From assembly GCA_951406725.2 (NCBI GenBank), contig OX597830.1, forward strand, positions 13,702,001-13,766,000: a stretch of 64,000 nucleotides of DNA. Reading direction: 5' to 3'. Within the stretch, counting starts at the first letter, position 1; each line of letters starts with the position of its first letter. A program made the position numbers and the translations under genes. The DNA comes from Octopus vulgaris (Eukaryota). Of this stretch, positions 7,310-46,419 are shown piece after piece. Below the pieces are notes generated by a model that saw only the letters and a list, made by a program, of their open reading frames with translations, did no database searches and had not been told where the DNA came from.

Positions 7310-7435
7310 ATATATATATCGGCACTTGTATTTACTGCCGAAAAAACCGCGCGTGCGTGGTGGATTTTGAAAAGTTATAACATATAAACACGAGGCATGG
7401 TCTGTATCGCCTCGTGCCTATTTGTAAGCCTTGGC

Positions 7436-7523
7436 TTCCTGCTGAAGATGACAACGCCAATTGTAAATTAAAATCATTCTATTTATTTACAAAAGATTGC
7501 CGAAACTATGCATAGTTCAGGAA
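7436..7523 (+). ncRNA. Type I hammerhead ribozyme motif, intact core
   Basis: Stem I TTCCTG/CAGGAA; CTGAAGA+T; stem II GACAA/TTGCC (1 mismatch) extended by TTGTAAAT/ATTTACAA; GAAA; palindromic stem III ACTATGCATAGT; GUU site after 7517. Confidence 0.8.
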
Positions 7524-7700
7524 AGATAGGGTAAACGTTTTTACTTCTCATTCCCTTTCAGAATTTCAACTATTAGTGGTTTGGAGTTTAACTGCTCTTT
7601 CTAGTGAGTCAGATGTCCTATTATGGTCATCTCTTATGTGTTTAAATGTACACTGTATTTATATATATATATATATATATATATATATATATATATATAT

Positions 7701-8197
7701 CAGCTGAATAAAGTTTAAACATGGTCTGATTTTCACGGTTTTTGTTGTGGTATTTTAACAAAATTAGCGCTTCCATACATAGTGTATTCATCAGATTTTA
7801 AATGTCTTTTTGCTGCAGTTGAGTTCTTGACAGCCAGTGAGGTTGGAAGAAATATAAAATAAACACGGTTTATTAAAATGTTCAAACCTGTTCTGAACGG
7901 AAATAACCAGTTAAGGATGTGGATTAAAAAATATTTCTAATATATAAATATAAACAAATTACAATATATCGGTACGCCTGGCAAACCGTGATGTTTAAGA
8001 GCATGCGGACTGATGAAAAAAAGATATTCTAAAACTTCACCTGGTACTAAAGGTACTAAAGTTGTCAAAAACTCAACGTCAGTTAAACACATTTGAAATC
8101 TGACGAGTACACTATGTAATGAAAGCGCTGTTTTTGTTAAAAATACCATAATAAAAACCGTGAAAACCAGACTATGTTTTAACTTTATTCAACTAGT
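7701..8197. mobile_element. Foldback element with ~105-bp inverted arms, each carrying a minimal hammerhead motif (PLE pLTR-like)
   Basis: 7701-7806 is an inverted copy of 8090-8196; motifs at 7761-7798 (-) and 8096-8134 (+) have palindromic stem III AGCGCT; flanked by (TA)n. Confidence 0.75.
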
Positions 8198-8239
8198 ATA
8201 TTATTCTATACACATTCACACAAATTTAAAACGATATAT

Positions 8240-9390
8240 ATATACATATAACCCAAGATAACCCAGACTAAGACAACTTAGACCCCACACGCACACATAT
8301 AACACTAGGTCAAAAGCTAAAACAGCTAACATAAACGGACCATATAACGCCCCACTTATTTCTAAAAATATAGATAACAGTACCCTTATGCAACCAAAAA
8401 AGCGGTGGACACTCTATTCTATGGTATACACCCACCTTCTCATTAAACGTTAGGAACTTAGCTAAATCCTTTTTCAATATACTGGACACCAACTTCCCTC
8501 GTCAACATAAATATTACTCTATTTTTAATAGATCTACCTTAAAGCTATCCTACTCCTCCGCTTTGAGTGTATCATAAAAGCCTCTAATAAACGAAAAGCT
8601 TCTCTCTATTATCAAAACTTACACTTAACAACTCTGAATACACGAGCGCCTAACATACACATAGCTCCAATATCGAAACCCATTCTTTAGTCCACAACAG
8701 AAACCCTATCAATCCCACTAACACTAACCAGAATGCTACTACCACAACTTCCACCTCTATTACAGATAGGATAAATAACAAAAACGATAGAAATAGTAAT
8801 GATAATAGTAATAAAAATATTAACAACATAGACCAATCTACCCCCGTCTCTAACCTCTCTTCTGACAGTAGTACCCCTCCATTCCTGAGAATAATCCCCA
8901 CAATGCACTACCATACAGCATTCGTCCTGAGACCATCTTCCCTCTACAAACCCATTGTAGAAGGTCTAATGTAATTTATAAATGTACCGTCCTCAACACG
9001 TTACACAATTCTACAACCATATGTATAGGATCAACTATAACTTTTAAACAAGGATATGCTGCATATCTCAATTCTTTTAGATACAAAAACCCCTGTAAAT
9101 TCACAACACTCACCAGTCACATAGATCATCTCAAAAATAGAAATATTCCCTACATCTTGTCATGGCCCATAATAGATTCAGGGCTTCAATACCAAGGTCT
9201 AAACTACAACTCTTCAATAATACTAAATAAATATAAAGAGATCCTAGGTATATGCTTTTTCCATACCTTCAAATTTTACCACAAATCTAAATGCAACTTA
9301 AATTACTACACAGTACATATCCCGAACACCAGTTAGGTAATCCCCAACAACCCTATTTGACTCTCCATTAATTTAACTCTCCAATCTTAT
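8240..9390 (+). mobile_element. Penelope-like element remnant (post-RT linker and GIY-YIG endonuclease)
   Basis: ILWYTPTFSLNVRNLAKSFFNILDTNFPRQHKYYSIFNRSTLKLSYS matches the PLE WFNPP..IFNRNT.K.SYSC motif; downstream CRRSNVIYKCTV..GST.TFKQGY..SFRY. Confidence 0.8.
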
Positions 9391-9424
9391 TTTAATTGTT
9401 TAATACTACACATATGGGCATGCA

Positions 9425-9640
9425 TATGCGTTCGTATGCAGATATATATGCGTATGTATGTATGTATGTATGTATATATATATATATATGTGTGTGTGTG
9501 TGTGTGTGCACGTATGTGCGCGCGCGTATGTGTGTACGTGTGCATGTATACGTGTATACGTGCGCACGTGTGTGCGTATATGCATGTGTATGCATGCATG
9601 CGTATGTGTGTATATCTATGTGCGTGTATATGTATATATG
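9425..9640. repeat. RY-alternating compound microsatellite
   Basis: Directly visible. Confidence 0.9.
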
Positions 9641-43498: not shown

Positions 43499-43651
43499 AT
43501 CTATCTATCTATCTATCTATCTATCTATCTATCTATCTATCTATCTATCTATCTATCTATCTATCTATCTATCTATCTATCTAGATAGATAGATAGATAG
43601 ATAGATAGATAGATAGATAGATAGATAGATAGATAGATAGATAGATAGATA
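43499..43651. repeat. (ATCT)n fused to (AGAT)n, forming a spacerless palindrome
   Basis: Centre CT|AG at 43582/43583. Confidence 0.92.
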
Positions 43652-44826
43652 CATACATACATATGAGCGCGTACGCGCCACTGGTGAAAAGTCTGTCCAG
43701 GTAATATAACTTACGTAAGTCCGGAAAGGTGGAAGGTAATAAACAAAGAAAAAAGCATAGGTGTAAGTATGTGTAGAAGTTCTAAAACAGGGAGAGAGAC
43801 AGAGAGAGAAAGAAAGAGAGAGAGAGAAAGACAGAGGGAGAGAGAGGGAGAGTGAGGGAGGGAGAGAGAGGGAGAGAGAGAGAGAGAAAAGAAGGAGCAT
43901 TTTAAAAACGTTTTTACACGTTTGCAGCGATTCCTAAGTATTCAAAGATGAAAATTGGCGAAATCCAGGTGTAGTTTCTAGTGGTGAATAATGAAGGGAG
44001 GGACAGAGCCGATGAAAGTAGAGTCGGAGCGTTTCGTAAGGTAATCGTAAGGTGGAAGGAAAAAGGCAGGAAGAAAAAAAAATCTTTTGAATGAATGTGA
44101 AGCAAAAGAGATGAGGAGAATTAGAAGTTTGTGTGTGTGGTGTTTGTGTGTGTGTGGTGTTTGTGTGTGTGTTAGCTAGCTAAAGAATTGGTAGCAAGGA
44201 AGGTGTTAAATACAGTTGTCAAACAAAGATGGAGTGAAGGTGTGTGAGTGAGTGAGAAAGTGTGAGGTTAGGGTGGGGAGGAAAGTGTGAATGTGACGGG
44301 GGCGCAAGGGACGTGCATGCGAGAGGGTTAAAAGAGAATATCTATCTATCTATCTATCTATCTATCTATCTATCTATCTATCTATCTATCTATCTATCTA
44401 TCTGTCTGTCTGTCTGTCTGTCTGTCTGTCTGTCTGTCTGTCTATCTATTTATCTATCTATTCCTGTGATTTCTATTGCACCCCTTAAATTCAAACAAAT
44501 CCACTGCATTGCTTTTAAGTTTGGTATATTATTTTCGGTAACTTTTGAGGAACCGCTCTGTTAGGAGTGGAGGGGGGCGTAAACAAAACAATAACAATTC
44601 TAAAGTGGTGTGGTGGCCAAATAGAAGCCCAAAACAATACCTTTCCTCACTGTAATTTTCTATTAATGAACCCCTTATAAAGCACATACGTGTCTTCTAT
44701 ACTACTTTATTCTCTTCTACCCCTCTTTACCAACACCACCCGTAATTATAATTCACATGCACCCATGTACTCCAGCAAAACAACAGCTGGCCACAAACTA
44801 TTTGAAATCGAAAAGAGCCAAACTAA

Positions 44827-44870
44827 ACTGCCCTCGGATGAAGCCGAGCAAGCCAAAAATTTAAGGCAGT
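44827..44870 (+). ncRNA. Decayed minimal hammerhead motif
   Basis: ACTGCCCT-CGGATGA-A-GCC-GAGCAA-GCC-AAAA-ATTT-AAGGCAGT; stem I 7/8 paired; about three substitutions in the core and stem II. Confidence 0.5.
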
Positions 44871-44930
44871 GTCAGCTCTTTCCTTTTTTGTAAAGCTTAA
44901 TAAATAAACACTTTATAAAAAGAATTACAC

Positions 44931-45248
44931 TGTTGTGTCTGAGGAGAGTCATTCTCTTTTAGTGCCTTATTATTTAACACACTCACCGGTAAAATTTCCA
45001 CTTATCTCTTATTTTTATTTTCCTAAAAGTTTCGTTGCGTCTTGCAACCTTTTCAATAGTCTTGACTCTTTTCAAAAGTCAACCTTTTCAATAGTCTTGA
45101 CTCTTTTCAATAGTCAAGACTATTGAAAAGGTTGCAAGATGCAACGAATATTTTAGAAAATAAAAATAAGAAATAAGTGGAAATTTTACCGGTGAGTGTG
45201 TTAAATAATAAGGCACTAAAAGAGAATGACTCTCCTCAGACACAACAG
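44931..45248. mobile_element. Foldback (~135-bp arms) with a U3-A8 hammerhead-like motif
   Basis: Arms 44931-45067/45113-45248; spacer built from short duplications of the arm end; third copy at 46048-46174. Confidence 0.85.
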
Positions 45249-45799
45249 AAGATGCTTCAACACACGAACTCATATAAAGAATCTTGCAAACCAAATCCAA
45301 AAACGAAAAAAGATTACGTAATCCTGTTTAACGCTAAAGTTCTTCTGTATAATTTAAGAACAAATAATATGTGTATATACATATATATTTGTGCGTGTGC
45401 GTGTGCGTGTGGGTGGTACTCTAACATGACAGCAGCCACACGGCTAAAACAAAAGAATATATATATCCATGATATGGCTTTGTATATTATCTTCTATATC
45501 TGTGTAGGTATGTATACACTCACACACACACACACACACACACACACACACACACACATATATATATATATATATATATATATATGTAGTATGTAATTTG
45601 TATACTGTTATATATTTGCTACAGATTGCTTGAAGCTAACTTTCTTCCTACACCTCAATCTCTGGATCTTACACACACACACACACACACACACACACAC
45701 ACACACACACACACACACACATACATACATACATACATACATACATAGATACATACATACATACATATTAACATACATACATACAAACACATATACCCG

Positions 45800-45962
45800 A
45801 GGGTTCTTTTAGTGTCCGTATTTCGAACCCACTCACAAAGCTGTGGTCGGCCCTAGGCTACAGTAGAAGATATTTGCCCGGGGTGCAACGTTGTGAGACT
45901 GAAGCTGGAACCACGTGGTTTGAAAGCTATCTTCATACGACACAGCCACGCTTGCGCCTACA
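45800..45962 (-). mobile_element. SINE family B 5' part, old copy
   Basis: Diverged reverse-complement match to the family B head. Confidence 0.7.
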
Positions 45963-46419
45963 TAGTATACATATGTAAATATATAGCTAAAAAAGTAAAT
46001 AAAGTTAGAAAAGGCAGAAGTATATTTTAGAGAATGTTTAATTTTTTTGTTGTGTCTGGGGAGAGTCATTCTCTTTTAGTGCTTTATAATTTAACACACT
46101 CACCGGTAAAATTTCCACTCTTTTACTTATTTATCTTTCTAAAATTTTCGTTGCGTCTTGCAACCTTTTCAATACTTGTTGACAATAGTTGTTTTGTAAC
46201 AGTGAGTGACTTAAAATAATAACCAGTTTCAATGTATCCATCTTATCAAATATTGAAAAGCATGTTTTTTTTGGAAGTAAAAAAAAAAAATTGTGGGTTA
46301 GCAGTTTGTACCTATGTTTTAGTTATGTGTGTGTATGTGTGTGTGAGTGTGTGTGTGTTTGTGTGCGTGTATGTTCATATACAATGTTCATACAACTACT
46401 GTATACCTCGCATATAATA

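Follow-up and report, generated by a model that had tools for sequence, protein, structure and literature searches.

Hammerhead-bearing repeats in an Octopus vulgaris genomic window comprise ends of Penelope-like elements and ORF-less head-to-tail units

Introduction

A 64,000-nucleotide stretch of the Octopus vulgaris genome (the window) contains a series of motifs resembling type I hammerhead ribozymes, raising the question of which elements carry these motifs and how the elements were inserted. The window spans positions 13702001-13766000 of contig OX597830.1 in a 2.8-Gb, 227-contig assembly (GCA_951406725.2), has a GC content of 36% and is dense in microsatellites; coordinates below are those of the window. 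The sequence-only reading of this stretch had listed about 16 motifs in about ten families, in or near (TA)n repeats and often as inverted pairs, and had proposed that they are either solo pseudo-long terminal repeats (pLTRs) of Penelope-like elements (PLEs) or non-autonomous elements mobilised by PLEs. We report that both alternatives are true, of different families: four families are head-to-tail units devoid of an open reading frame (ORF) and share the insertion anatomy of PLEs, while five others are, in one case probably, the 3' ends of protein-coding PLEs.

To our knowledge, the hammerhead is nearly universal in PLEs. In the in vitro system of PAc, the Poseidon PLE of an anole, it is not needed for insertion (PMC11167929). 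ORF-less units that retain the ribozyme through compensatory changes and show the two-site insertion signature of PLEs offer minimal natural substrates for testing the role of the hammerhead and the mobilisation of retrozymes by PLEs.

Results

Hammerhead motifs form ten dispersed families

Families were labelled by the position of their window motifs: A (7436), B (7761/8096), C (20312/21187/22700), D (20839), E (21543), F (22340), G (31574), H (34683/34792), I (44827) and J (45023/45120/46139), with K (34229, minus strand) added here. For each except I, the 30 loci analyzed were the top 30 of the 40 best-scoring genome matches to the window copy and not a random sample; some of these are duplicates, and some pairs are the two arms of one insertion. 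Stored genomic copies, named L002, L217 and so on, total 1.77 Mb.

A generic type I descriptor allowing at most one deviation retrieved 6 motifs from the window, compared with a mean of 0.4 (maximum 2) in 60 local dinucleotide shuffles, and an earlier version retrieved 4, compared with 0.05 (maximum 1) in 40 shuffles. At a relaxed tier the excess was weak (10 motifs versus 3.8, maximum 8), so the decayed copies are not validated by the window alone and genomic copies were needed. These revealed that nine of the ten claimed families, accounting for 15 of the 16 listed sites, are dispersed genomic repeats whose column majority is a full type I hammerhead. The same holds for K, a good motif that the earlier list had overlooked, giving ten supported families in all. 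The remaining claimed motif, 44827..44872 on the plus strand (family I), was rejected: it is single-copy, has no match at the other stored loci, was missed by the descriptor and has two or more core defects.

The type I core CUGANGA...GAAA...UH and three helices are present in all ten families, as judged from the column majority and the per-copy descriptor, and stem III is palindromic or nearly so. The core deviates in C, where it is U4C, and in J, where it has U3-A8; an extra base follows A9 in A, F, G and J. Copies without any deviation numbered, per 30, 14 for A, 15 for B, 9 for D, 4 for E, 14 for F, 14 for H and 20 for K, and, with a 3-bp stem I allowed, 9 for G and 19 for J. Family C had none, because the U4C change is family-wide, and 25 of its 30 copies showed just one deviation; U4C is described as a natural variant with reduced activity in vitro in the part of PMC3088659 available. 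A 19-nt motif of H occurs exactly 289 times in the genome and, given a divergence of about 10%, the family likely has near a thousand copies. Most window copies are decayed, with zero deviation only in the E copy: both H copies lack 5 nt of the 3' strand of stem I, the 8096 copy of B has a G at the cleavage position, and the F copy has lost the UH.

An Rfam scan of the window gave no hammerhead family among the 150 of 228 matches listed, with matches of microsatellites to miRNA models dominating, and a repeat search of the whole window returned predominantly simple repeats. Units A, D, H and K may already be catalogued in repeat libraries, as unknown repeats or as Penelope.

Across all stored loci, 238 strict hammerhead motifs fall in 29 clusters, and many of these families are absent from the window. 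At least three clusters include U4C cores, namely C, a relative of F in L008, and L146. A U3-A8 hammerhead-like motif at 13485-13600 (plus strand, core 13501) lies in a repeat matching L098, L013 and L267 and probably represents another family.

Four families are ORF-less head-to-tail units

Far upstream of the ribozyme, long copies in families A, D, H and K run back into their own family's downstream sequence, at a constant period of about 486 bp in A, 470-485 in D, about 534 in H and about 508 in K. Natural spans give unit lengths of 486, 484, 534 and about 500 bp, respectively, with a GC content of 30-34%. These four families are ORF-less, non-autonomous, head-to-tail units, each shorter than 1 kb, below 45% GC and with one type I hammerhead, as in the definition of animal non-LTR retrozymes. 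Copies extend over about 0.5 to 1.9 units, and 31 of 120 exceed one unit (A 10, D 7, H 4 and K 10 per 30, with two H rows being one locus); at L093/L094, L474 and L278, two ribozyme motifs lie one unit apart. No arrays were found among the top-scoring loci, where the largest copy is 1.9 units. Where a locus holds two repeats, these mostly share 90-98% identity, a divergence similar to that seen from one locus to another, indicating that the tandems date from insertion and are neither recent duplications nor assembly errors.

The longest ATG frame in the four units is 37-53 codons. The closed units contain no reverse transcriptase (RT)/GIY-YIG ORF, and none gave a match below E 0.008 to PLE protein. 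The ORF probes were 21 pieces, all from this genome. A contiguous upstream PLE ORF was found in 0 of 120 loci, and such an ORF was likewise absent from 90 partly overlapping loci found by downstream-only queries; same-strand upstream ORFs at L524 and L463 are separated from the unit by other elements or by an inverted arm.

Relatives with 65-79% identity across the full length of the unit retain the core, while pairs in stems I-III are replaced on both sides, as seen by eye in pairwise alignments. Such compensatory pairs were observed for H versus L217, A versus L393 and L026, and K versus L250, the last over part of the unit, supplying the stem covariation on which the ribozyme claim had been staked; for D, no diverged relative covering the motif was found. 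A core kept alongside compensatory stem changes points to selection acting on the fold in lineages without any coding capacity. Folded as circles, the units are more stable than shuffles (z from -2.7 to -6.4, with 61-66% pairing; 25 shuffles and a single natural copy per unit), with part of the z-score owed to the ribozyme stems.

In the window, family A is represented at 7318..7660 (plus strand) by 0.74 of its 486-bp unit, with its 3' end on (TA)n; the hammerhead at 7436-7524 has its core at 7442, a predicted cut after 7518 and one mismatch in stem II. A foldback of family A pieces without a ribozyme lies at 36167-36419. Family D comprises an inverted arm at 20455..20577 (minus strand), which has the long end and no ribozyme, and 0.95 of the 484-bp unit at 20579..21037 (plus strand), with the core at 20839, one stem III mismatch and a short 3' end on (TA)n. 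Family K occupies 34016..34411 (minus strand) with 0.8 of its roughly 500-bp unit, core 34229, and a short 3' end on (TA)n. In family H, with its 534-bp unit, the inverted arm at 34437..34788 (minus strand) has the long end (+327) and the direct arm at 34789..35044 (plus strand, core 34807) the short end (+239), the 3' strand of stem I being deleted alike in both. Four contig sets were aligned to a D copy. Pieces of it occur in two sets presumed to be RNA, which says nothing about expression, RNA ends or circles, and the D unit is also covered in contig sets of two other organisms. Loose contig ends at L223:1626-1636 point to numerous relatives of D that differ in the stem II region and share the downstream sequence.

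Insertions have two 3' ends, which foldbacks pair

Proximity to (TA)n, claimed from the letters alone, was borne out at two scales. Within the window, 12 of 17 sites lie at most 350 bp from (TA)5, compared with 38% of random positions; in the genome, 3' ends abut (TA)4 in 21 (A), 22 (D), 22 (H) and 24 (K) of 30 copies, compared with 7.5% of random flank positions. These 3' ends fall into two classes about 85-110 nt apart, clustering at +239/+327 in H, +216/+300 in K, +206-237/+325 in A and +198/+270-310 in D. The 5' ends of the four families are ragged: 75 of 90 copies continue beyond the site of predicted cleavage, and no pile-up of 5' ends was found at the cleavage site, the ends being spread.

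About a third of the loci are head-to-head foldbacks, and the inverted pairs that had been noted in the window were confirmed for B, D, H and J. Of 42 independent foldback loci in the four families A, D, H and K, 28 allowed the two ends to be assigned to a cluster; 26 of these paired a short with a long end, 2 paired two short ends and none paired two long ends (hand count). Independent choice of site would give about half as short plus long (binomial P of about 1e-6 at one half). A rougher measure of foldback ends, contaminated for circular families, was applied to PLE-derived families, the counts for A, D, H and K coming from a separate mapping; it gave 22 of 27 foldbacks mixed for J, and for C 15 mixed, none alike and 9 unclassed.

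All families show the traits of PLE-type insertion, namely 5' truncation, an inverted 5' copy, an optional tail and an AT-rich target, and these hallmarks are alike in PLE ends and ORF-less units. A tail at one end only is a known trait of PLEs; where the unit is closed, this tail simply consists of the unit sequence that follows. Partial tandems were seen in A, D, H and K only.

In C and J, short palindromes immediately preceding the ribozyme (window positions 21186 and 45110) are where 5' ends and foldback junctions concentrate; the palindrome is of 6 nt in C and forms a small hairpin in J. Mobilisation of other sequence in trans by PLE repeats, and palindromes at inverted junctions, are described in the part of PMC3846280 available.

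Four families, and probably a fifth, belong to protein-coding PLEs

An ORF with RT and C-terminal GIY-YIG domains lies upstream on the same strand in B, C, F, G and J, and every such ORF is broken or partial; ORFs upstream of hammerhead copies gave Pfam matches to GIY-YIG and RVT_1. Families B, C, G and J are firmly identified as the 3' ends of 5'-truncated PLEs, as distinct from solo repeats of the LTR kind, and F is probably another. Clade names used here depend on motifs read by eye, with Neptune-like denoting a CxxxCxxC-type linker.

The upstream ORF stands at a steady offset in 14 of 29 (B) and 16 of 29 (G) loci outside the window, and in loci from upstream queries it was present in 5 of 30 (C) and 8 of 30 (J). 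Copies of B continue directly into an ORF of RT thumb, zinc linker and GIY-YIG, and the window B arm starts in its last codons. For C, about 900 bp of TG-rich untranslated region (UTR) was walked before an ORF with the motifs of the Hydra clade: the parent (L318, L314 and L332, by eye) has DKT, a CxCX5C linker, CxxC and CxH flanking conserved E and N, and a (TA)n target. The upstream walk for J reached a GIY-YIG ORF, and for F, PLE coding sequence was found in 2 of 30 loci, beyond about 1.4 kb of CA-rich UTR. Linkage to PLE ORFs was found for these five families and at none of the A, D, H and K loci analyzed.

In the window, family B forms a foldback of an inverted arm with the short end (7701..7821, minus strand, core 7794 with GGAA in place of GAAA) and a direct arm with the long end (7828..8251, plus strand, core 8100), the latter holding the last GIY-YIG codons and the 3' UTR of a Neptune-like PLE. 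Family C, the 3' end of a Hydra-clade-like PLE, has copies at 20280..20390 (minus strand, U4C core 20372), at 21186..21357 (plus strand, carrying a tail of about 65 nt, core mutated) and at 22691..23064 (minus strand, about 300 bp of 3' UTR, core 22754). A decayed copy of F lies at 22280..22470 (plus strand), probably the PLE 3' end with the CA-rich 3' UTR. Family J, a Neptune-like PLE 3' end, forms a foldback at 44930..45316 with a short minus arm and a long plus arm, its U3-A8 core at 45123 and a 3-bp stem I, and has a truncated copy at 46041..46186 (minus strand).

Two nearby PLE ORF remnants had been put forward as partners of the hammerhead elements. One belongs to a broken Neptune-like PLE (29300..31796, plus strand) made up of an inverted piece at about 29300-29700 and the remnant at about 29730-31245, which is followed in the 3' UTR by the decayed G hammerhead (core 31578); it is the parent of G only. 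The other, the endonuclease region of a broken Hydra-like PLE at about 8250..9340 (plus strand), belongs to a separate family and was rejected as parent or partner, as none of the ten families is colinear within 1.2 kb downstream of this endonuclease in 30 copies. In that Hydra-like family (8250-9700; L426-L455), which has at least 150 genome matches, the endonuclease region follows an Asn-rich stretch.

At the duplicated locus L002/L003 (about 1240-1800), an inverted C arm, a J piece and a direct C arm are joined with short matches at the junctions. This C-J chimera suggests that RTs can template-switch between RNAs of unrelated PLE families.

Three of the ten listed families (A, D and H) are therefore non-autonomous as proposed; the rest are the five PLE ends, the unsupported 44827 and E. 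Family E is an old family (window copy 21372..21724, minus strand, core 21636) that is non-coding over at least 750 bp; one upstream walk gave neither an ORF nor a head-to-tail junction, and, at about 380 bp upstream from the first query, its copies grade into TG/TA-rich sequence.

Other repeats of the window

A dispersed repeat of about 240 bp, of a size like that of short interspersed elements and 85-92% alike among copies, lies at 4939-5180, 35302-35541, 54349-54565, 58684-58923, 62696-62933 and 63457-63698, and a long (GAT/GGT)n trinucleotide tract spans 40046-40795.

Discussion

Proposed mechanism and alternatives

We consider it probable that all of the hammerhead motifs are products of PLE retrotransposition, with PLE enzymes acting in trans to move A, D, H and K. 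In vitro, the RT of PAc starts at two internal sites that lie downstream of the ribozyme and define a tail; PAc nicks and extends both strands of AT-rich targets, and its template is uncleaved RNA, ribozyme cleavage not being required (PMC11167929, Frangieh et al. 2024). Twin 3' ends downstream of the ribozyme, foldbacks, AT-rich targets and read-through of the cut site are the counterparts here. In the pathway that we propose, a partial-tandem copy of an A, D, H or K unit would be transcribed, and a dimer of PLE RT/GIY-YIG protein would bind the RNA downstream of the ribozyme and nick both strands of (TA)n DNA, with reverse transcription starting at two internal sites as with PAc in vitro. 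Priming on one strand would give a 5'-truncated copy, and priming on both a head-to-head foldback with one start site per strand; a copy longer than one unit would regenerate the tandem and could act as a source. The RNA copied would mostly be continuous across the cleavage site, as either an uncut multimer or a religated circle, and the ribozyme would act outside the insertion step, most likely by cutting unit-length RNA from read-through transcripts. The pairing of short with long ends is a direct prediction of how the PLE dimer engages its RNA.

Several observations weigh against this reading. No sequence is shared among the A, D, H and K units or between them and the sampled PLE 3' ends, and no autonomous partner PLE was identified for any of the four, although searches that return the 40 best matches could miss a diverged ORF-bearing relative. 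Tails measure 45-65 nt in the PLE families, 85-110 nt in the families lacking an ORF and 30-40 nt in PAc; PAc has its protein-binding signal within the first 172 nt of the ORF, while A, D, H and K show no evident ORF start; and the start site of PAc in vitro did not differ between strands, while the foldbacks here pair unlike sites. The assignment of F depends on two loci, and E fits neither the PLE-end nor the ORF-less class.

A tentative alternative is that A, D, H and K are true circular-RNA retrozymes, whose tandem transcripts self-cleave and whose ligated monomers are copied by a PLE RT rolling round the circle. The placement of all element sequence on one closed unit, the reading-through of the cut site, the compensatory maintenance of the ribozyme, the folding of the circular units, and a helix III of 3-5 bp, which could permit cleavage of monomers, are consistent with this pathway. 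However, an uncut multimer, the dominant PAc substrate (PMC11167929), explains the read-through equally, the ribozyme stems contribute to the folding z-score, and neither arrays nor copies above 1.9 units were seen among the top-scoring loci. Few private changes are common to the two repeats of a locus (57 shared versus 259 unshared in 39 rows, some contaminated), which neither proves nor excludes copying from a circle. In its fullest form, which we regard as a speculative possibility, the four families would be long-lived, independent, protein-free replicons propagated via a ribozyme-made circle and integrated by a PLE dimer that uses one fixed start site per strand. If true, they isolate two cis signals of PLE mobility, the hammerhead and the twin start sites, show the hammerhead to be under selection though dispensable for insertion in vitro, and supply an integration signature tying retrozymes to PLE enzymes.

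It is unlikely that A, D, H and K are, like all the other families, nothing but terminal repeats of protein-coding PLEs, with the short periods arising as rare accidents of deletion or duplication. Five of the ten real families are indeed PLE ends, three of them recognized only after an upstream walk of 0.4-1.4 kb, and the structural hallmarks are identical in the two classes. The period nevertheless recurs at many independent loci per family and in the relatives of 65-79% identity, and no A, D, H or K copy analyzed exits its unit into an ORF, which largely refutes this explanation for the four. Chance matches in an AT-rich, repeat-rich window are a highly improbable source of the motifs: the relaxed count near the shuffled range, the several window motifs whose minimum-energy fold is not a hammerhead and the resemblance of 44827 to such a match speak for them, but the strict count, the many intact genomic motifs and the compensatory changes refute them except for 44827.

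Comparison with known systems

The preferred reading, PLE-driven insertion of all families, can be set against related elements as described in the available parts of the papers cited below. The minimal hammerheads of PLEs are of type I; a single genome holds many divergent families of them, for the most part as dispersed single copies left by truncated PLEs (PMC4209133, Cervera and De la Pena 2014). They share with the present motifs the opposite-strand pairs 100-700 bp apart, the palindromic stem III, the extra base between 9 and 10.1 (A, F, G and J) and U3-A8 (J). Families B, C, F, G and J are covered by these and are already known in kind, differing in the U4C core of family C. Truncated PLE ends are not set apart from ORF-less tandem units in the part of that work available, whereas they are here. 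The parent of C displays the features of Hydra-clade PLEs, which insert in (TA)n and have a hammerhead, DKT, a CxCX5C linker, and CxxC and CxH near the end of the endonuclease (PMC8557442).

Animal non-LTR retrozymes are ORF-less and low in GC, have one type I hammerhead per unit and are proposed to be moved by PLEs (Cervera and De la Pena 2020, PMC7229834; 10.64898/2026.07.22.740005), and A, D, H and K resemble them in all three structural respects. Units of 484-534 bp compare with 170-400 bp in PMC7229834 and 51-972 bp in 10.64898/2026.07.22.740005. Retrozymes form arrays, whereas the octopus units are dispersed 0.5-1.9-mers. Two 3' ends, (TA)n and foldbacks, which mark each insertion here, are unreported for animal retrozymes in the parts of those two sources available. 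Retrozymes of vertebrates have been linked to PLE repeats, those of Xenopus being related to PLE terminal repeats (Li, Clavereau and Pollet 2026, 10.64898/2026.07.22.740005), whereas no sequence link to a PLE repeat was found for the octopus units. The Chlamys element MRC1 is likewise non-autonomous and head-to-tail, with pseudo-LTRs (Craig et al. 2021, PMC8557442); unlike the units here, elements of its type are algal, have a 3' end resembling that of their partner and belong to a clade mostly lacking hammerheads.

In the part of the main text available, the octopus repeat annotation does not mention 'ribozyme' (PMC13282606), and in the literature consulted in part, whose supplements may list some, we found no description of hammerhead units that lack an ORF, lie dispersed in (TA)n and bear the end signatures of PLEs. 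About half of what is reported here is PLE debris of a known type, consisting of PLE ends that carry minimal hammerheads within TA repeats. In contrast to PAc, the ribozyme is visibly under selection in elements without an ORF, and the four ORF-less families form a real variant that stands between retrozymes and non-autonomous PLEs and is of a kind that was to be expected.

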